Positions 40,650 through 59,087 of a DNA stretch of 64,000 nucleotides are shown piece after piece. Source of the DNA: an uncultured Nitrososphaeraceae archaeon (GTDB lineage: Archaea; Thermoproteota; Nitrososphaeria; Nitrososphaerales; Nitrososphaeraceae); the NCBI GenBank assembly GCA_963825865.1, contig CAWGVG010000003.1:160001-224000 (forward strand). Direction: 5' to 3'. The first letter of the stretch is position 1. Every line of letters starts with the position of its first letter. The position numbers and the translations under genes are program-made. The notes beneath the pieces are model-generated. The model saw only the letters and a list, made by a program, of their open reading frames with translations. It ran no database searches and was not told the origin of the DNA.

Positions 40650-41023
40650 TTAGGCTGGTGTAACGTGGTATCGTGTATCCTTGCCTAAGCCAAACCTTTG
40701 AATTTTAAGTACGTTATGTCCTTCGCTAAGGTATGAATCGATCTCTTCCGAAGTTCTCTTTCCTACAGTAATGTACTTTTCTTCTTGATTGGTGTTGCGC
40801 CATTATTAGGTTCTGTTACTGTGTATTGGTATCTCTGAGTCTTTTTGCCATTAAATTCCGCTTCTACCTGTTCTATGTTCTCTGGATTAAATTGTAGAAC
40901 CTTTTTTTCTCCTGGCTGTAATTTTATAAACTTGCTGTCCTTCTGTCTGAGTTCTGCATTCCTTTGCAAATTCTGTTTAGCTTTTGGACTCAATCTTTCT
41001 GCTGCTGCCAAATTAAATCTCAC
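40650..41023 (-). CDS. Putative phage/MGE single-stranded DNA-binding (OB-fold) protein, frameshifted
   Basis: [20 protein letters not shown]..(frameshift)..[16 protein letters not shown]; GGAGGTGA SD-like motif; overlaps the PolB stop. Confidence 0.5.
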
Positions 41024-42600
41024 CTCCTGTCTGCAAATTTGCTTTACCCGACCACGCCACTTGGAGGCTTTGCTGTGTGGTCATATTTATACAAATTAAA
41101 TCTTGTTCTATTGTTGCGATATCATGACCTGCAATTTCTAGAATGTCTTTGACTGCTTTCCATAACATTATTTTGTATTTTTTGACACTGATGTCTTGCA
41201 GATTAAGAGAATATCCTTCTTTATTGTTGTCAGATTCAAAATACTCTATGACATCTCCTTTCCTTGCACCAATCGCTAACCCTATCTTGCGCTTACGATC
41301 GTTTTCATTTTCGTATTCTTCAGGATTTTTGGATAATCTATTAGATCTCTTTAGTAATTCTGGACTTACATTATGAAGTTCTAAATCAGAGATTGCTTTT
41401 TTCAGATTAGCAATAGCGTCCGCATTATTAACAATGTCATATACTGTCTGTCTGAATACAACATTAATCCATCTAGGTCGATCATTCTTGTCTCCTTCCA
41501 TACCAACTATGTCTGGTTCTTTTCCTTGTATGCCAGTCCAACCAACGTAATGCTTTTTCTTATCAGAAATTATTGCTGTTGTGTAGGTCTTGGCATGTTC
41601 TACTTCTATACCTAACTGGTTATAGCATTCTTCTTGAAATCTTGAAATAATATTACTGCTACATGTGGTTCCAGTCGTATCATAGACTGTGTTGTAAAGG
41701 AATAAAGAATCAGTGTCACCATAGACAATTTCAAATCCCATACCTTTGGCAATTTCTTGCATTTTTGAAAGTGTGTATCTACCGTATGTGGTAATTAGCT
41801 CTGCAACCCTCGGATCATAATACTTGAAATATTGACTTCCAAAGACACCATATCCACCATTGATCAGAATCTTTAATGCTAGCTGTTTTACTTGATTTCC
41901 TAGTTTCTTTTGCTTAAGTCTCTCTTCTTTGAACACCTTTAATTTGTTTGGAAATGCACCTTCTTTTTGTCTGCATGTCCAGTATTCCTTTTGAATTTTG
42001 CAATCCTTTATAATATCTTCATTTATTCTACATTGAGAATCATCTTTACAACATTCACAATTTACTGTATCAAATGATATATTGTAAAGTATTGCCATTG
42101 AAGGGTACAAACTGGCAACGTCTACAACAATCAGATCATGGTAAAGTCCCTTTGGTTGAAGAACAAATCCCCCAGCATATTGTTGTAGTTCAGATTTTTC
42201 CACATTTCTGTCATATAATGAAACTGCTGGTGTTTGACATTCTCCATTAGATATCATACTATCAAAAATAGCTGCCCATCATGTTGATATGCCAGTTCTA
42301 CATACTCTTTCAAAATCTAAACCAGTTAGTTCTGATGTGGCTTTCATAGCATTAAGGACTTCACCATTATTATGTTTTGAAAGCTGCATTACCAGCTCAG
42401 CATCTCTTAAAACATATTTTTTCTGCTCTTCAATTGGAAGGGTTTGAATGTCTTTTCCTGTTAGTCCTTTGTATTTTCTAGCTACTCCTACTCCTCCAAG
42501 ACCATCTCCTAATACAGCCTTAGATACATCATCTAGTTTTAGAGTTCGATAAGCATTCTTGAAAATTGTAGTCTGTACCATTGGTTTGCCAAATACAGTC
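41013..42600 (-). CDS. Family B DNA polymerase (MGE-type), 5' truncated, frameshift ~42270
   Basis: DVASLYPS, KILINGGYG, YGDTDS, KKHY; exonuclease motif III YVLRDAEL in the upstream piece. Confidence 0.88.
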
Positions 42601-42850
42601 CCTTTGCCGTATTCAGTAAGATAACCTCTAGTATTTACCATGGAGATACCATATTTATCGGCATATTCAGTAAGTACTTCAGGAACACCTTCCTTCTCTA
42701 TAAACACAATATCTGTTCCCTTCTCTGCAAGTTCATCTATTGCATCAAAACTAACACTAGTCCAAGTACCATCAAAATACACTCAGCCCTTACCCCTGCA
42801 ATTATACCTATGTCTTCACGTTTTCTCCCAGCAGCTTTACAGATTTTACT
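42600..42850 (-). pseudogene. Toprim (TopoVI-A/Spo11-like) domain fragment fused in frame to the PolB remnant
   Basis: REDIGIIAG..YFDG..DIVFIEKEGV..YGISMVNTRGYLTEY. Confidence 0.5.
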
Positions 42851-42852
42851 AA

Positions 42853-43986
42853 TTAACTGCTTGAAGAAGATTTGATATTATCACTGTTAATCCTTGATTG
42901 TTCTATAACGTCTTCCATTTGATTTTGAAGTCTATTCTCGTTGCTAATCGTCAAAAATTCTATAGCCTTCAAATAATCTTCCAAAAGCTCGTTCTCGGTT
43001 GCTCTGTAATAGGAGCCAGAAATACCTATGGAGTGGCCCATCAGTTTCTCAATGTTTATTGGCTTCATCCCAGAGATTTCGCAACGAGTCTTGAACCACT
43101 TACGGAAACCATGATCAGCCTGAAACTCATGTCTCCTCTTACCATCCTCAAGCTTTTTTCTAAGCCCTTGAATCCAAAGTGCATCTTCCATCAACCTCTT
43201 TACACCTGATGATTTTAGCTTCTTTGGTGAATCAATAAAACCACGTTTGAATCCTTGTTTGGTATTCCACATATTCCTTAGAACCCAACTATTTCCATCA
43301 ATTGCCTCTCCAGACTCTCTGCGATAGTTCATCCATTTTTCTAACTCATGATATGCTTCTGGAGTTATGAAACTAAAGTATTCTTCCTCATCTTCTGCAT
43401 ATACAATTATTTTAGCTGCTATGATTTTTCCATTCCTCTTGGCAGGGTGTATATCTTTCCATCTAAGGTAATCCCACGCACCAAGTCTAATGCCAGAAGA
43501 AGACATGGTGCAAACAATTGCTTTTATTCGCCTATCTGGATATTCAATTATTCTTTTTATATCTTCAATCGTTGGGGCTCTATCATAGGCATACTTTCTT
43601 CCCTTAGGTAATCCTCTTGTAATCTTCTTCCATGGTATGGATATATCATTCATTTCGCAGAACAACTTTATGGCCTTGACAAAATTATGAACAGTAGCTC
43701 CTGTGATCTCTTTTCTCTCTACTCTCTCTTTTTGTGCTTGCAGAAACCTCAGGATGCTATTCAGAAACCATTTACTGTTACTATTGCCATTTATTCTATC
43801 CATCTCTAATGCATTTCTGCACCTTTGTTGTATGTTCTCGCCTTCAAGGTTGATAAAGTCAAAGAATTTCGTTAGCCTATAGGTGTATTTTTGTTTGGTC
43901 ACTTGTGAATTTATCGCAAACATGAATATACCGTAAGGATCTGAATCTACGTTCAGGCATCCTCCTATTACATTTTGTTCTTGCAT
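42853..43986 (-). CDS. Tyrosine recombinase/integrase
   Basis: Catalytic set SSGIRLGA (R), HGFRK (HxxR), LMGHS (H), SYYR (Y). Confidence 0.9.
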   Translation of the reverse strand: MQEQNVIGGCLNVDSDPYGIFMFAINSQVTKQKYTYRLTKFFDFINLEGENIQQRCRNALEMDRINGNSNSKWFLNSILRFLQAQKERVERKEITGATVHNFVKAIKLFCEMNDISIPWKKITRGLPKGRKYAYDRAPTIEDIKRIIEYPDRRIKAIVCTMSSSGIRLGAWDYLRWKDIHPAKRNGKIIAAKIIVYAEDEEEYFSFITPEAYHELEKWMNYRRESGEAIDGNSWVLRNMWNTKQGFKRGFIDSPKKLKSSGVKRLMEDALWIQGLRKKLEDGKRRHEFQADHGFRKWFKTRCEISGMKPINIEKLMGHSIGISGSYYRATENELLEDYLKAIEFLTISNENRLQNQMEDVIEQSRINSDNIKSSSSS

Positions 43987-44033
43987 TCTATTTTTTCTTT
44001 TTCCTAGAACCCTATTTGAGAACTAATACCAAT

Positions 44034-44058
44034 GTGGGCCGAAAGGGAGTTGAACCCT
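44034..44058 (-). other. tRNA 3'-end-like sequence (putative att site)
   Basis: Minus strand AGGGTTCAACTCCCTTTCGGCCCAC = T-arm plus acceptor 3' strand; ~50 bp upstream of the integrase; no D- or anticodon arm. Confidence 0.6.
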
Positions 44059-44361
44059 GCATATAAATGGGTTCAGCATATTCCATGGTATGGGCTATAA
44101 TAAAGGATGATCTCGATACTTTACTTGTCTATTTGAAGTTTATAGGTAATATCTGCGAAATGAGGATTAGTGCCAGGTGAGGTGAGGGCGCCTGTTGGGG
44201 TGACACGAACATTGTAAAAGATTGTATGCTCCCCAGGAGGCAGTGGCTTCAGAAAGACCCACCATCCTTGACTTACCGCGCGCCATGCTCCTGTCACTTG
44301 GTTTGCGATATCGGTGTCAGCTGGTATCGTAAGGTTAAATCCCTTTGAGTAGAAATCGTTA

Positions 44362-46055
44362 ATGTTAGTTTATTTTGGGCCTCTCAGCGATGTCCTAGTT
44401 AGAACTATCCAAGGGTCTAACCCGAGGTTTACGATAGGAGTCTTTGGTGACTGGGGTACTGGAAAAACAACATTGATGAGGCTTATTCAGAAACAACTTC
44501 AGGAAAAAAATGATGAAACAAAAATGGTAACCGTATGGTTCAATGCCTGGAGATACGAACGAGAAGAGCAATTTGCAGTTATACCTCTTCTCAAGACTAT
44601 TGCATACGCTATTCCTGATAATGTAGGAGAATTAAAGGGCCTCAAACAAAAAATCAAGAGGGCTGGGATGAATGTTTTAAAAGGACTTCCAGACGTTATC
44701 CCTTCGCTTGTTAAGCAATATTTCGGTGAAGTGGGAGAAAAGGTTACAGAGGATGCGGTCAATAAATTTAAAGCAGAATTCATCCCAAAATTCGAACTTC
44801 TAACAGAAGTAGATAGAGAGACAATCTATTATGATGGTTTAGAACTGATTAGCAATGAGTTATCTAAAATTAGGACCAAACCCGGGTACAGAAACGTTTA
44901 GGATTGTAATATTCATTGATGACCTAGATAGATGCTCTCCTAAAAGAGCATTAGAGGTATTTGAGTCTGTAAAAGTCTTTCTAGATGTGGAGGGTTTTAT
45001 TTTCGTTATGGGTCTTAGTCTTACCACTATGGCCAAATTAGTTGAAAAGGAGTACGAGGGTACGGATATCAAAGGGCGAGATTATATACGTAAAATTATC
45101 CAAACTCCTATTTTTCTGCCAGCATGGAAAGTCGGTGATACTATCAGCGTTATTAAGGATCTGATTGATGGAAATCGATTGGGTGGAGCATATGCGAATT
45201 TTATTGCTGAAAGAAAAGATATTCTAGCAACCATTATTGAACCCAATCCAAGAGAAATAAAGCGGTTTATTAATGACTTTCTGATAACGTCTGAATTGTC
45301 TGAATTATCTGAACCTAAATTAGATAAGGAAGCACTTATCCTTATTCGAGCACTTCAATTCAGATGGGATGTTTTTTATGAAAAGTTTATGTCTGATGGG
45401 AATTTCAGGTCGGCTATAATTGCCGTTTCTTCTCTACATGTGAATTTAGAGTATTTGAACAATTACTTGAACGAAGAGGACTTTGGACGGAGAGGGATGA
45501 TGATGAGTATAATGTTATATCCAACAAGGAGAACCTTGAATATCGGGCAAACGGAAGAGGAACTAAAAGAGAAGATGGAGGCAAACCGGCGAGATATCGA
45601 ATCCGCTAAGAGAATGTGGAAGGACCAGGAGAAGTCAAGGAAGGAAAAAGAGCGTGACATACAGTACATACCATTAGGTAGCGCGAAAACGCTAGATGAA
45701 GTAAGAGAGGAGAGAAATGAAGCAAGAGATCAGACGGAGAAATTTCTGAGAGATGACAGCGAACGCATAAAGAAATTGGAAGAAGAGTACGGTGAAATGC
45801 AACGGAGGGCCTCAGAAGAAGAAAGTGCTCTCAGAATCGAATACGGAGAGTTGGAATAGTATTAGTACGGCGCTGAAAGACAATATAGATATACTCGACG
45901 CGTATAAAGCCGAGGTTAATGAGATAGAGTCTCGGTTATGGGAAGTTTTAGTCCAGAGTAGCAAAAACTTTTCTACGATAACGAATTGGGATGATTACAG
46001 ACGTGTAATGGGGATAGCCAGTCATAAAAAGATAGATGTGATTACTCAAAAATGA
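44362..46055 (+). CDS. KAP-family P-loop NTPase with a coiled-coil C-terminus (frameshifts)
   Basis: GDWGTGKT, WFNAWRYE, IFIDDLDRC, YIRKIIQ, NPREIKRFIN. Confidence 0.88.
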
Positions 46056-46273
46056 GGCTGACTAGGCTACTACTCTTTTAATATTCGCGCTCACTCATCT
46101 CGTCTCATCTTATCGATAATATAGAGCATTCTTATGAGTCATTTAATTATTTATTTTTTCTAATTAATGCTAAATATTAAACCTCCTGGATACTGCTGTA
46201 GGATTTCCTATTATACCCTCAGCGTGCGGATTACCAGTTTCAGTGCTACCTTTGATTATTTATTAGAGAAAGT

Positions 46274-47790
46274 TTGCTCAAAAACTATGTAATTTATGAA
46301 GTTGATAATAACAAGAAAATCAAGAAATTGGCAAAGCATCAACAGTACAGAGTAGTTACAAAAGCAGTTGAAAGACTAAATCTAGAAGAGGAAGAAAATA
46401 TTGCAGACAAAGGTGGCGTAATATGGCATACACAAGGATCAGGTAAATCGCTTTCTATGCTCTGGCTTGCAACTCAATTAATGTATAGGTTTGGAAATCC
46501 ACCCATTGTAATAGTTACTGATAGAACACAATTAGACGAACAAATCCATGGAACTTTCAAGGCTTGTGGATTTCCAGATCCTATACCAGCTAGAAGTAGG
46601 AAGCATCTTCAATCCTTGCTTAGCAATCCCAGAGGCAAAACTATAATGACTACTATTCAGAAATTTGGCTCTAAAGAAAACCACATTCATACAGATGAGA
46701 AAGTTATTGCTCTTGTAGATGAAGCGCACAGAACACAGTACAAATTCAATGCAGAAGCCATGAGATCAGCCATGCCAAATGCAGTATTCTTTGCATTTAG
46801 TGGAACTCCAATAGACAAGAAAAACAAAAGCACCTACAACGTTTTTGGCCCTCTGCTTGATAAATATTCCTTTGAAGAATCAAAAAATGATGGTGCCACA
46901 TTAAAGATTATGTATGAAGACAGGATGCCAGATCTTTATGTGGAAGGAGCAGATAGCATAGACCATATCTTTGAACGTGTTTTTTCAGACCTTGATCAAG
47001 ATACTAAACACAGACTCAAAAAAGAGTATGTGACAAAAGAGAAAATATCAGAAGCCCCTGCAAGAATCAGAAAGATTTGCCTTGATTTAGTAAATCATTA
47101 TAGCTTCACATATTCAACCCAATGGGTACAAGGCAATGGTAGTTGCAACTTCAAGGGAAGCTGCTGTTACTTACAAAAGGGAATTGGACAAGCTCAATGC
47201 ACCCAGATCCAAGATTATTATGACATCCCATCTGGGTGAAAAAGGTAAAGATGGAAGCAGCTGGGATGAATATTACCTTACTTCTGAGCAACGTGAAGAG
47301 GAAGCTGATAGGTTCAAAGATCCAAATGATGCAACTAAAATTCTAATAGTAGTTGATATGCTTCTTGTAGGCTATGATGTTCCAATAGTCCAGGTCATGT
47401 ATTTAGATAAAGGGTTAAGGGAGCATACTTTACTTCAAGCAATAGCCAGAGTAAACAGATTATATGATGTACGAAAAACATATGGATTGATAGTTGATTA
47501 TTGTGGAATAACAAAAGATCTACAAAAAGCACTTGCCATATTTGAAGAAGAAGATATCAAAGGAGCGTTAGAGCCAGCAGAGAAAGAGCTGGAAGAGTTG
47601 AAGAACAGACACCAAGAAGTAATGTCATTTTTCACAGATATTGACAAAGAAATGATGATGCAATAATTGAAAAGTTTGAACCTGTAAACGTCAGAGATGA
47701 CTTTGAATATGCATTTAAGATGTTTTCAAAAGCACTAGATATTATCCTTCCAAGAAAGGAAGCAGATCCATATATTCCCTGTATAAGAAA
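46274..47790 (+). pseudogene. hsdR: Type I restriction enzyme R subunit, helicase part only
   Basis: HQQY, IWHTQGSGKS, TTIQKF, DEAHR, FSGTP, IVVDMLLVGYD, LLQAIARVNR; nuclease N-terminus and C-terminus absent. Confidence 0.9.
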
Positions 47791-48170
47791 TCTTCGAATT
47801 TGTGCTTTGGACATTTCTGTCATTATTATTATTATTATTATTATTATTTATCTTGCCTGTTGTAATAGTATGGAGATAGAAGATAAAATTCTAAAAAGTT
47901 TGCTACGCCACTATCATTCACATATTCTCTATCTTATTGCTACCTGTACCAACGTATCATAGGCTAGTTTTACATATCAGCAGCCGACAGCTAACGGCTT
48001 CTAGTGTCGCCTGTCAAGTTAACAGAACCATTTAGATAACTTAATTTATTAAAAAGACCAGCAGGAGATGTGTGGCATCGATTAAGAACGATAATAATAA
48101 TAATTAGCATATTTGTCCTCACTCAGACTCTAGCAGCGAGTGGTCATCAGCAGAATATGCTTTAGAATAC

Positions 48171-48803
48171 TTGGAAATTGCAGAGAAAATTCCACACAAG
48201 AATGAAGGAGAAAAAGTTCTTCTTGAATATATTCCAGCAGATACAAAAAGAATACTTGATTTAGGAACAGGAGATGGTAGACTAATCAAACTAATAAAGT
48301 CGAAGAAACAACAGCAATTGTCCGCTTCCTCATCCACATCGTTGTCGTCATTAACCCCAGAAATTACAGTAGTTGATGTTTCACCTACCATGCTTGAAAA
48401 GGTAAGAATGTATTTTAAAAATGATAATAATGTAAGAATAATAGAACATGATCTTTCATATCCCATTTCTAATACTAAAATAGAAAGACAATTTGATGCC
48501 ATAATTTCTGGACTTGCAATACATCATCTGACTCATGAGCGCAAATATTCGCTTTACAAGGAGGTTTATGACTTATTGAAGCCTGGAGGAGTATTTTGTA
48601 ATTTAGACCATGTTGCTTCGCCGACGCCAAGCCTCCATAAACAATTCTTGGCAAAAACAGTATGCAAAAAAGAAGATAAGTCCAATAAATTATTAGACAT
48701 GCAAACGCAGCTCAAATGGTTGCAGGAAATTGGATTTATTGATGTAGATTGTTATTGGAAGTGGCTTGAACTGGCACTTTTGGTAGGAGTTAAACCAATT
48801 TGA
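48171..48803 (+). CDS. Class I SAM-dependent methyltransferase
   Basis: ILDLGTGDG, VDVSPTML, AIHHL, LKPGG, CYWKW. Confidence 0.88.
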   Translation: MEIAEKIPHKNEGEKVLLEYIPADTKRILDLGTGDGRLIKLIKSKKQQQLSASSSTSLSSLTPEITVVDVSPTMLEKVRMYFKNDNNVRIIEHDLSYPISNTKIERQFDAIISGLAIHHLTHERKYSLYKEVYDLLKPGGVFCNLDHVASPTPSLHKQFLAKTVCKKEDKSNKLLDMQTQLKWLQEIGFIDVDCYWKWLELALLVGVKPI

Positions 48804-54629: not shown

Positions 54630-57600
54630 TCATAATTCTCTTGCTTCTATAAAGGTAAAGTCTCCTCTCTCTTCATCTGAGTATATCTCAAAACCTTGCT
54701 CTTTTACTATTTGATGAAGATTATACAATCTTCCTTTGATTAAAGACTTTGTTGTTTCTGCAATCATCAAGATGCCATTAGTTACAAGACATCTCTTTGC
54801 TTCTGCGATATACTCCTGCCAATTCTTACCCATTAGCGATAGTGAAAAGATTGCAACATCTAATGCTTCATCAGCTAACGGTACTTTTTTCATATCACAT
54901 GCTACGACTTTATCATTTATAGCAACATGGTCAAAGCTATGACACTCTTTGTGATCCGATTGCCTCCATGATTTTTGCTTCTCCCAGCCAAAGTCTCCAA
55001 TATGCAGTCTCGGGGATAGCCGTTTTATTCTTTTGATAATTTCTTCATATGGAATAACACTCCAAGTCTTGCGTGCTTCTCTATACTGTCTGTGATATTC
55101 TTCCCACTCTTTTGGGTCTTCCAGCATTCTTTCATGGGTGGTTTCAGAATTTTCATTATTAATTTGGTTGTTTAATCCTGTAAAGTCACCGTATTTTCTT
55201 ATTCTTTGTTCTATCTCAACAGGTGTTAATTTTACCTCAAGATCTCTTCTATTAATACTTGATATTTCTCCTCTCTCTAATCTTTCCAACCATTTTGCTG
55301 CTTCCATCATAGCTTGCTGTGGAGTTACCATGTTCTTATTGGGTAGTCGACCATCTACTGCACAGTCTGCCAATGTACGTTTGTATTGAATTCTTTTCCA
55401 TTTGTTATCATCATATTTTAATCCATTGATATTTGCTTTGATGATGTAAACATTTACATAGTCCATCTCACTGCCTTTTCTAACCAATCTACCAACAAGT
55501 CTGCTGATATTGTGCATTAGTCCATGGAAGAGTATTTATGATTAAATTATTGCAGATGTGCTGCAGCCCATCTACACCAGTGGATATAGGGCGGGAAGCA
55601 ATCAATACTTGGACTTTTTTATCCAAAAATCTTTTTAATCCTGAGTGATCTTCACCCGTATATTTTGCATAAGTGTACCCAGCATCTTCTACTGCTTTTG
55701 ATAATTTTTCAACTATGTCTGTAACATATTCTGTGTAAATTATAGTCGTACCTTGTATATGTTTTATTATTTCAGGTATTTTCGCATCTGATGCTAACCG
55801 TTCAACTGTGAGTGGATTTCTTATTAATTCCTTTGCGCTAATATTACTTTTTCTTATATCTATTTCGACGTCTATATGTTCTGTGTATACGCTAATAGGA
55901 TATGGCGGTATTTCTCTGATTGATATCAAAGATAATTTTTCATATAATTTGACAGCATTTTGTGGAGTTGGTCTGGTTGATATATCATCATATATTTTAC
56001 CTGTTATCAACTGTAGCAAAGATTTACCCTCTTCTAATTCATTTATTACTGGTGTCGCTGATAGTCCAAGGACATTTACATAGCTGTTTTTCTTACTAAC
56101 ATCAGTCATCAATCCTTCAATGTTATGTCGTCTTTTACTTTCTTCCTTTTCATTTCTTTTCTTTGTGAAATGTATTTCATCCAGTACAACAAAGTCGATT
56201 TTTTGTTTCACCAGATTTAAGATAAGATTTGGGGAATATGGCTGACTGAATAGATCATAGTTTAAGACCAGATATTTGTGTTTATTTTTATCATATTTCT
56301 CATAGAACGCTTCATTTCTTGTTATAACGACGGAATCATGAAATATCTCCAGGATATTATTTTCCCATTGGTCTACTACATCATTTGGACATATTATGAG
56401 AGTCATTTTACTGTCAATCACACGACTTGCCAGCACAGCTGAAAGTGTTTTTCCTGCTCCAGTTCCAGAGAAATTACCGAAACGCCTATTTGTTTTGATT
56501 TTATATGCTACATATCGCTGCATCAGTGTTGGTGATAGAATCTCCTTATCTTTATCTCTGAATGTATAGCCTTTTGGAATTTCAATACTCTGTGCTCCTT
56601 CATAATCTGAAAGAAATGTTTCCAATATTATGTCATGATATTTGTTACCATCTTTGCCTTCACGCCTTACATCTGAAATAGTATTTTCTTTATCTCTAAA
56701 TGCACTTGCCCATAAATCCTTTATTGATTTATTAACATAAAACTGCATGGACTCTATATCTTCAGTATATGATTCTAACCTATCAGATTGGGCAAAGATT
56801 TGCTGTGGTGTCTTGATTTTACCATAATCTAGTGGATCTGTTTCCTTTCCTACCAAATCAGCAATCTCTTGAGAAGATGCAGTTCCTATTTCTTCCTCTT
56901 CTGATAAATCTGGTGGAATTTCTAAATCAGAATTTACATATTCCTCTATAGTCTTACGCCCTTCAGCTGTACGTCTTGCCTCAATCAAGTTTTTGAAGAA
57001 TTGTGTGTGACGGCTCTGTAGATTCAACAGTCCCTTTGTACTTAATAAGTGGTATAGAACAATTTCATCTTCCTCATAAAGCATTCCACTTTCAATCCAA
57101 TCCTTTAACAATTCCTTTACTCTTCTTATTGACCAATCTGTTTCTTCATATCCAAGAAAATCATACCAACCTTTCCATACTTCTTCATATATTATATTAG
57201 CATTTGTTGGTATATAATCAGGCTTTTCTCCAGATCTGCACCACTTTCTCCATTCCTGCCAACTTTTCAATCCAAGTGAATGAACAAATTTTTTAGCTTC
57301 TAGAAATGACCAGTATTTTCTATCCTGTGTAGCTATAGTGCCTGTACCAAGCCAATCTCCCCAACCTTTCCATTCTTTTTTATATACTCGATTAGGACTG
57401 TATGGTATATAATCAGGCTTTTCTCCAGATCTGGACCACTTATTGTATTCTTTCGTATTCTTAAAGCCAAGTGAATGAACAAATTTTTTAGCTTCTAGAA
57501 ATGACCAGTATTTTCTATCCTGTGTAGCTATAGTGCCTGTACCAAACCAATCTCCCCAACTTATCCATTCTTTCTTGTAAGTTCTTTCTGGATGAGGTGG

Positions 57601-58095
57601 TATACCTTCAGGAAGATCTTTTTCCTTAACATATTTGCGCCATTCTTTATTATTTTTTATTCCCGATGAACGAGCAAATTCTCTTGCTTCCTCAAAAGGC
57701 AGTGGTTTAAAATCTTGCTTCCATACTGTCCCAGTACCAAGAAAATTCCCCCAGCTTATCCATCCTTTATTTTTATATACTTTATGAGGAATACGTGGTA
57801 TACCTTCAGGAAGACCTTTCTCCTTAGCATATTTTTCCCACTCCCTAGAATTTTTTATTCCCGATGAACGAGCAAATTCTCTTGCTTGAGAAAAAGATAA
57901 CCATTCTTTACCAATCCAATTACGCCAGCTTATCCATCCTTTATTTCTATATACAGAATCAGGACGAGATGGTATACCTTCAGGAAGACCTTTCTCCTTA
58001 GCATATTTTTCCCATTCATCCTTACCTTCTAATTTGAGTGAATTAGCAAACGCTCTTGCTTCTTCAAATTTCCTCCAAATTGTGTGAAATATCAT
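54630..58095 (-). CDS. Multidomain protein: five Trp-rich repeats + SF2 helicase + Rrp8-like SAM methyltransferase (frameshift ~55500)
   Basis: Repeats at ~57150-58080; SGTGAGKT, VLDEIH, LSATP, ISTGVDG, GRLVRKG; EDPKEWEEYH, IGDFG[CGEA], HSFD, CDMKKVPL, FSLSLMG, LMIAE. Confidence 0.85.
57150..58080 (-). repeat. Five tandem ~175-200-bp coding repeats (integrase-repeat-like units)
   Basis: For example, a 79-bp identical block at 57272-57350 and 57467-57545; consensus F.EA..F..S.G.K...EW..Y...(KP/LP)..IP..P...Y...W..W..(W/F)LG. Confidence 0.9.
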
Positions 58096-58262: not shown

Positions 58263-59087
58263 TTGATGATGAAATTGAGAAAAAAGATATACAATATAGA
58301 TAAAGAAAGTTTTGAAATCAAGTTTAACGAGTTTAGAGGTGCAGTACAATTTGAAAATGGGAGTCAGTTTAGGAAAAGGCTGAATAACAAATTTATTACT
58401 TTCGGCAGGATTATGAAAGACGGAAATATACCATACGATAATAGAAAAGCATATGCAACTCAGCTAGTTAAAGAATTAGAATGTTTTAGAACTAAAATCT
58501 CTAGTTTCTTGCCAGAATTTATGTTAGCTGCGCTTGTTCAAGGGGAAGGTTTTAACATCAGGTTTATCTCAACAACAACTGCTTCTAAAACATGTGATTT
58601 ACTTTTTAACTCACATAATACTGAAGTTAAAACATTTTTAGATAGCTATAAGCAAGGTACAAAAATAGAACGTAGTTTAATTAAAGAGATAGAATGTACA
58701 TTAAAAAGAAAAAAAGCAGTGTACGATATAAATGAAGCACTATCTAAGAAAGCAGATATAATTTTTATGTATCTTACTTTTTCTTCTTTAGCAATAGGTT
58801 TTGCTAAATATACTTTTGAAAAGAATATGAGCTTTCCATTATTAAAAGCACTTAGAGAGTCAATCTCCATTTGTGACAAGAATGCCATGAAACAGACTAT
58901 TGAAACTATACCAGTAATAGTGTTTACTACGTTAATAGATGCAGTTAGTTGGGATTATAAGATTTTCTCTCTTATGGTTCCTTATCCTGTAAAGATGAAT
59001 AAAATGAATCAGGTTGGAGCAGATTCCGAGAAACTATTAATAAAGTTGGACAAGGACTCACACAGATCCGAATATTTGAAAATATAG
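58263..59087 (+). CDS. Putative PD-(D/E)XK nuclease-fold protein
   Basis: E(FMLA)..GFNI..KTCDLLF..TEVKT pattern. Confidence 0.5.
   Translation: MMMKLRKKIYNIDKESFEIKFNEFRGAVQFENGSQFRKRLNNKFITFGRIMKDGNIPYDNRKAYATQLVKELECFRTKISSFLPEFMLAALVQGEGFNIRFISTTTASKTCDLLFNSHNTEVKTFLDSYKQGTKIERSLIKEIECTLKRKKAVYDINEALSKKADIIFMYLTFSSLAIGFAKYTFEKNMSFPLLKALRESISICDKNAMKQTIETIPVIVFTTLIDAVSWDYKIFSLMVPYPVKMNKMNQVGADSEKLLIKLDKDSHRSEYLKI

Follow-up and report, generated by a model that had tools for sequence, protein, structure and literature searches.

The window analysed here is a stretch of 64,000 nucleotides from an uncultured Nitrososphaeraceae archaeon (assembly GCA_963825865.1, contig CAWGVG010000003.1, positions 160,001 to 224,000), which carries on its minus strand a gene opening with five tandem repeats of about 65 amino acids (aa), followed by a superfamily 2 (SF2) helicase and a methyltransferase. 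Judged by homology, this array is a copy of INT_rpt (PF14882, 'Integrase repeat unit', formerly PHINT_rpt), a catalogued but functionally unstudied family. Our analysis revealed that each unit combines a nearly invariant scaffold with a handful of extremely variable positions, and that this localised hypervariability is real and family-wide. The window gene itself is an ordinary and broken member of the family, to which the analysis adds five defined positions (columns 19, 23, 38, 40 and 41 of the repeat) with an evolutionary signature. The family is large (6710 clusters), it extends over bacteria, archaea and giant viruses, and it is almost always found on DNA-motor enzymes. If the five positions set target preference, these arrays would constitute a new programmable recognition scaffold, and if they do not, a generic tether; five named positions are, in this regard, a concrete and cheap handle for experiment.

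An earlier note on this DNA, made from its letters, had described repeats with a conserved scaffold and two hypervariable stretches, patches A and B, and had read them as a modular recognition code comparable to that of transcription activator-like effectors (TALEs) or zinc fingers. The first part of the description holds for the whole family and not just for the window gene. A hidden Markov model (HMM) made from the window units, after one round of iteration, allowed the extraction of 2328 units, with all 267 fetched homologues positive, and in these units F4, A7, L14, W22, P32, I35, P36, P39, Y43, W48, D53, L55 and G56 form a nearly invariant scaffold, which also conserves Lys or Arg at columns 2, 8, 12, 17, 27, 31 and 44. 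About ten columns are above 3.1 bits of entropy, and values of 3.4-3.8 bits are reached at columns 19, 23, 38, 40 and 41, all five of them inside patches A and B. The variable residues had been described as mostly polar, basic or aromatic, and in the family-wide residue spectrum they are polar or basic. Moreover, a comparison of 1063 pairs of sister units (within-protein pairs with an identity of at least 70%) showed that the five columns differ in 65-71% of the pairs, that is, at 74-82% of saturation, whereas nine other columns with an equal family-wide diversity reach 36-51% of saturation among the same pairs. The same behaviour is seen at two positions of the linker, columns 62 and 63. The existence of near-identical sister repeats means that arrays do expand by duplication, as had been proposed, and array length varies as well, with 5 to 17 repeats per protein in the sample and one locus of 23 units in a single frame.

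In the predicted unit, helix 2 holds columns 19 and 23, separated by one turn, and a short third helix is surrounded by columns 38, 40 and 41. Among 1485 ranked column pairs, the covariation of 19-23 is the 5th strongest, followed by 19-51 (11th), 38-41 (12th) and 40-51 (16th), and because of these four couplings we suggest that patches A and B meet around residue 51. The combinations of residues are almost all unique, with 2143 distinct five-residue sets in 2299 repeats and around 140 effective pairs for patch A alone.

In the window, the array is the 5' end of an open reading frame (ORF) of 868 aa at 55489-58095 on the minus strand, whose first 325 aa (57121-58095) consist of five tandem units of 64-66 aa. 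The ORF, our HMM (E values from 1e-23 to 3e-29) and Tandem Repeats Finder (a period of 195 nt with 87% matches and a period of 174 nt with 80%) all agree with the five repeats originally reported. The claimed 79-bp block is exact, 57272-57350 being identical to 57467-57545 with no further extension possible; the 195-nt duplicate to which it belongs has 29 differences, and when these are shuffled a run of at least 79 arises in 1 of 100000 shuffles. A second block of about 30 bp had been noticed in repeats 4 and 5, and it corresponds to columns 27-36, where the two units have zero nucleotide differences. The strings quoted for patches A and B were also correct. That they vary in every unit is only partly so, since they include the conserved E21, W22 and P39: five different residues among the five units are found only at columns 19, 37 and 38, and four at columns 20, 26, 40 and 41. 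In the same line, the confinement of differences to the patches stands for repeats 4 and 5, which differ in 10 of 14 patch columns and in 8 of the 42 elsewhere (Fisher p=0.0006), and for the amino-acid differences between repeats 2 and 3 (p=0.021), but the clustering is not significant between repeats 1 and 2 (p=0.36), 1 and 3 (p=0.13) or 3 and 4 (p=0.76). The ratio of non-synonymous to synonymous substitution rates (dN/dS) of the patches calculated from the window only, 1.24-1.61, rests on about 2 synonymous differences and is not significant.

The direct match of the window array to the Pfam model of INT_rpt is weak (20.6 bits, E 5.5e-4, model positions 11-32, with a gathering cut-off of 26.5), and a genome-wide search gave 20.6 and 18.9 bits for window units. 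We assign the repeats to this family because of their homology to proteins that pass PF14882 clearly, such as P0040 (92.6 bits) and P0015 (77.4 bits), and the window units agree with a tandem-unit size of about 55-65 residues. The excerpts retrieved by literature searches for INT_rpt or PF14882 mention the family in lists only and include no functional study; in one of them it is placed among repeat families without known structure (PMC8078820), and in another the accession serves as an integrase marker (PMC11502894). The excerpts of the GMT preprint (10.1101/2023.03.28.534373) contain no mention of this repeat in GmtZ.

When the full library was searched with the array, 6710 representatives of clusters at 50% identity were found at E<=0.001, and for 1503 the match reached E<=1e-30. 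Partner domains were counted in the 32 representatives of at least 1000 aa among the best 150 matches, and these long proteins carry ResIII (28), Helicase_C (27), Mrr_cat_2 (19) and Methyltransf_8 (3) domains, together with an INT_rpt match at E<=1e-5 in half of them (16/32). Some carriers consist almost solely of repeats. A scan of species-representative genomes with a degenerate DNA pattern gave a second set, with repeats in 105 of 120 loci, and the records listed include cyanobacteria, Verrucomicrobiota, Chloroflexota, Proteobacteria, Bacteroidota and ammonia-oxidising archaea. Thirty-six of the 105 repeat loci also match the Mrr query, and 14 match both helicase and methyltransferase. A restriction-modification-like pair sharing a common array was considered as well and left no sign, with 0 of the 105 loci holding nuclease-type and methyltransferase-type carriers together within 8 kb.

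The matches of the predicted unit fold in BFVD are SF2 helicases of giant viruses, with template modelling (TM) scores of 0.65-0.81, probabilities of 0.94-1.00 and identities of 23-34%, found in Klosneuvirus KNV1, Bodo saltans virus and Marseillevirus LCMAC102 (A0A1V0SLK7, A0A2H4UVX6 and A0A481YT28), where a unit predicted to fold in the same way also sits on a helicase. Those are viral proteins, unlike the window gene, and their viruses infect eukaryotes, so that the repeat-helicase association reaches viruses of eukaryotes. Nothing similar by sequence or fold was found in the PDB, and a search of the ESM Atlas with PF14882 excluded gave no usable match. As a separate observation, the heads of repeat units in P0004 (aa 723-760), P0041 (aa 10-31) and P0054 (aa 9-30) match positions ~192-229 of the Pfam family Exonuc_X-T_C, in the case of P0004 above the cut-off (36.9 vs 27 bits); a profile of 103 units retrieved no exonuclease I chain from the PDB at E<=10.

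Structure prediction with AlphaFold2 and a 56-sequence alignment gave for the array a predicted local distance difference test (pLDDT) value of 91.7 and a predicted TM score (pTM) of 0.55, the confidence falling in the linkers. A single unit, repeat 4, reached a pLDDT of 92.5 and a pTM of 0.76, with helices at 4-14, 19-27, 39-42 and 50-54. Because one unit is modelled confidently by itself and the confidence of the array drops in the linkers, the units look like independent small domains: each of them would consist of a helical domain of about 57 residues, able to fold independently, plus a Gly/Thr-rich linker of about 8, arranged as beads and not as a solenoid. The array is basic, with an isoelectric point of 9.6 in comparison with 5.5 for the remaining protein, and it contains 26 Trp in 325 aa. 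Family-wide, a repeat carries on average a net charge of +3.6, with a positive value in 86% of the 2327 counted.

These features allow a comparison with the two systems that the earlier note had invoked. TALE repeats are near-identical units of 33-35 aa that form a continuous superhelix and read their target through a small two-residue code. As in TALEs, we find tandem units, a constant scaffold, a few focused variable positions and a variable array length. The parallel fails beyond this point, since the window unit has about 65 aa, a single unit folds confidently alone in the prediction and the units would be separate small domains on flexible linkers. Sister units here are far less alike in their scaffold, as illustrated by the differences in the window's 195-nt duplicate, and five variable positions give about 2100 combinations in comparison with the handful of two-residue codes of TALEs; because these combinations are almost all unique, there is no TALE-like small code. 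C2H2 zinc-finger arrays, in turn, are small beads-on-a-string domains with short conserved linkers and variable polar residues along one helix. Shared features in this case are a beads-on-a-string organisation with short conserved linkers, polar residues that vary at a distance of one turn within a helix, and many combinations, but an identity with zinc fingers is contradicted by the column table, where there are no zinc ligands: no Cys2His2 set occurs, Cys is frequent at column 26 only (46%) and conserved His columns are lacking. Moreover, the INT_rpt unit is helical, twice as long and built on an aromatic core.

From the fusion partners and the charge, we favour, by a modest margin over its being otherwise, that the basic and Trp-rich array is a substrate-targeting module that holds a motor enzyme on nucleic acid, most probably DNA. 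The array of the window gene would tether a helicase-methyltransferase to such a target, and the contacts preferred by a given unit would be set by its five hypervariable positions. An aromatic, proline-rich scaffold under strong constraint is combined with five polar, presumably exposed positions that change almost freely between sister repeats. The identity and anatomy of the repeats, their family membership by homology, the pattern of rates and the broken frame are shown by the data; we infer both the nucleic-acid binding and the role of the five positions in specificity. A competing explanation, clearly less probable and yet the best of the rest, is that the five positions are unconstrained solvent-facing side chains of a sequence-independent tether or spacer, with binding provided by the conserved basic scaffold only; the Lys and Arg residues conserved in the scaffold could supply it, and the fact that nearly every repeat has its own five-residue combination is what free drift would produce.

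The rates of change bear directly on this choice. We used the DNA of 714 units (105 loci), a set independent of the protein one, and in spanning-tree pairs within loci at a nucleotide distance of at most 0.25 (127 pairs, 37 loci) the dN/dS was 1.17 (95% interval 0.92-1.49) at the five hypervariable columns, 0.58 (0.48-0.69) at other variable columns and 0.21 (0.18-0.24) in the scaffold. Over the different estimates, the five hypervariable columns have a dN/dS of about 1.1-1.3, which is near neutral. Several points weigh against a role of these columns in specificity. The spanning-tree interval includes 1, the estimates of 1.05-1.17 all have intervals that include it, and the value between loci is 1.03, as a sequence-independent tether would have it; a dN/dS near 1 is also expected from wholly unconstrained side chains. 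The estimate varies with the choice of pairs from 1.15 [0.75-1.53] to 1.33 [1.10-1.59], always close to neutral, and the upper figure, the one estimate whose interval lies above 1 and which speaks against the tether, comes from reciprocal-best within-locus pairs picked by scaffold distance, a choice that lowers dS and biases the ratio upward. The surface location of the five positions is deduced solely from helix periodicity, residue type and covariation, and the present variation in the broken window copy may include neutral decay. At the protein level and within arrays, the five columns change 1.94 [1.69-2.25] times as fast as other variable columns (127 pairs, 86 proteins), a ratio somewhat inflated because the five columns were defined on the same protein set, and between-locus DNA pairs (dS ~0.8) are too diverged to reproduce the contrast that follows.

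That contrast speaks against a mere tether. Between reciprocal-best units of different proteins the same ratio is 1.07 [0.83-1.37] (81 pairs, 51 protein pairs), at an equal scaffold divergence (8.4% within arrays vs 8.9% between proteins) and with bootstrap distributions that do not overlap, and one fixed neutral rate does not predict a value of 1.07 between homologues and of about 1.9 within arrays. The tether also leaves aside the covariation of the positions inside each patch and with column 51. After duplication, the five positions change at a rate equal to or slightly over the neutral one, and they seem less exceptional between close homologues; this combination of speed within arrays with an ordinary rate between homologues fits, without proving it, a specialisation specific to each repeat. 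The diversifying selection that the earlier note had advanced is in this way suggested, the near-neutral dN/dS at the five columns falling short of proof. A bolder version of the targeting hypothesis would see in INT_rpt arrays widespread modular nucleic-acid readers, in which the five positions of each unit recognise a short sequence or structural feature and steer helicase-nuclease and helicase-methyltransferase enzymes in bacteria, archaea and giant viruses by a zinc-finger-like logic in a new fold; we regard this generalisation as improbable at present.

It is also rather doubtful that the array recognises a protein, for instance as the phage or partner sensor of a helicase-nuclease defence enzyme whose variable positions are engaged in an arms race. 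Most long carriers are Mrr-nuclease-helicases (19/32), genes for type I restriction and for a KAP NTPase occur in broken form in the neighbourhood of the window gene, and a few surface positions with a dN/dS at or over about 1 would be in keeping with such a conflict. PADLOC also gave weak matches of the helicase to the defence helicases PbeA (1.4e-11) and DrmD (3.1e-8), but these cover the generic helicase core only, and neither for the repeats nor for the two flanking ORFs scanned (the methyltransferase ORF 54630-55517, and 58263-59087) was there a match to any PADLOC model. Furthermore, a positive charge in 86% of the units suits a polyanion better, and the family also occurs on proteins consisting almost wholly of repeats and on giant-virus helicases. 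Very improbable, finally, is a gene-conversion mosaic in which the identical blocks of the window were recently homogenised and the patches are older and unselected: although long exact blocks are typical of conversion and those of repeats 4 and 5 (columns 1-14 and 27-36) have no synonymous difference at an overall proportion of synonymous differences (pS) of 0.27, this pair only offers about 10 of them (9.7 synonymous differences in 35 sites), too few to reveal a mosaic, conversion tracts cannot skip the interleaved single codons 19, 23, 38, 40 and 41, and the simple mosaic is disfavoured because, family-wide, synonymous divergence next to the hypervariable codons equals that of the scaffold (pS 0.26-0.33 vs 0.28-0.36).

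The gene that carries the array can be understood by comparison with P0040, an intact homologue of 1301 aa with the order array, helicase and Methyltransf_8. It has the same repeat as the window gene and the same domain order, it aligns with the window array unit for unit (E 0), and the identity between the two amounts to 56% in the array and helicase and to 72% in the methyltransferase. The window copy differs in having 5 units and not 7, in scoring below the Pfam cut-off, and in a frameshifted motif VI and a scrambled motif I. P0040 is continuous across the motif VI position where the window ORF ends; the methyltransferase motif I (S-adenosylmethionine-binding), at ~54930-54990, has lost its frame in the window along some 16 codons, where another frame resembles P0040. 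From these alignments, the intact form of the gene is a repeat array followed by an SF2 helicase and a Methyltransf_8 domain, and the window copy is broken by at least three insertions or deletions, being either a pseudogene or the product of assembly errors. The helicase scores are above the cut-off for ResIII (39.1 bits), SNF2-rel (33.3) and DEAD (32.0), and under it for Helicase_C (22.0 bits with a cut-off of 23.5); the model match of Methyltransf_8 (PF05148) in the downstream ORF is well over the cut-off (131.1 bits with a cut-off of 27, 7e-38; ORF aa 109-287, window 54657-55193). The features of the gene and of its neighbourhood are collected in Table 1.

Table 1. Features of the repeat-helicase-methyltransferase gene and its surroundings (window coordinates)
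Feature	Position	Strand	Remarks
Repeat 1	57904..58095	(-)	aa 1-64; begins at the ATG of the ORF; without long linker; own HMM E 2.3e-23
Repeat 2	57706..57903	(-)	aa 65-130; own HMM E 8.4e-27
Repeat 3	57511..57705	(-)	aa 131-195; own HMM E 2.6e-29
Repeat 4	57316..57510	(-)	aa 196-260; own HMM match; unit used for the single-unit AlphaFold2 model
Repeat 5	57121..57315	(-)	aa 261-325; final unit, tail diverged; own HMM E 1.1e-23
Linker region, array to helicase	56539..57120	(-)	aa 326-519; conserved in P0040; no Pfam family
SF2 helicase core	55498..56514	(-)	ResIII/SNF2-rel/DEAD aa 526-706; Helicase_C aa 773-866
Frame break in helicase motif VI	55489..55506	(-)	ORF stop 55489-55491; remainder of the motif in an overlapping frame
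Downstream overlapping ORF	54630..55517	(-)	295 aa; helicase end and Methyltransf_8
Divergent neighbouring ORF	58263..59087	(+)	274 aa
DNA polymerase B fragment	41013..42257	(-)	
KAP NTPase gene, split	44362..44901 and 44855..45859		
Type I restriction R subunit, split	46274..47239 and 47136..47666		
Class I methyltransferase	48171..48803		in a row of broken or split genes (41013-48803)

Contigs from sequencing runs leave the frame break uncovered (depth 0 in bins 55419-55535). Short contigs identical to 56779-57021, 57106-57256 and 57338-57535 come at low depth from rhizosphere metagenome runs of a single study; the best sequencing run shares just 0.18 of the sampled words, and no habitat is claimed from it.

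The divergent neighbour of the gene has no Pfam match, nor one in PADLOC as seen before. A second repeat-helicase copy exists in the same genome (G000:C61:11776-14807) and is interrupted by several stop codons; an additional fragment with repeats is found at G000:C62:207393-207980. The split KAP NTPase and restriction R genes, the polymerase B fragment and the stops in this second copy favour a pseudogene-rich genome. Among 30 relatives searched, a homologue of the gene was found in one, at 53% identity. Coding density is low overall, the GC content is about 35%, and the genome, with 4.98 Mb at 82% completeness, is larger than those of its same-family relatives (1-4 Mb).

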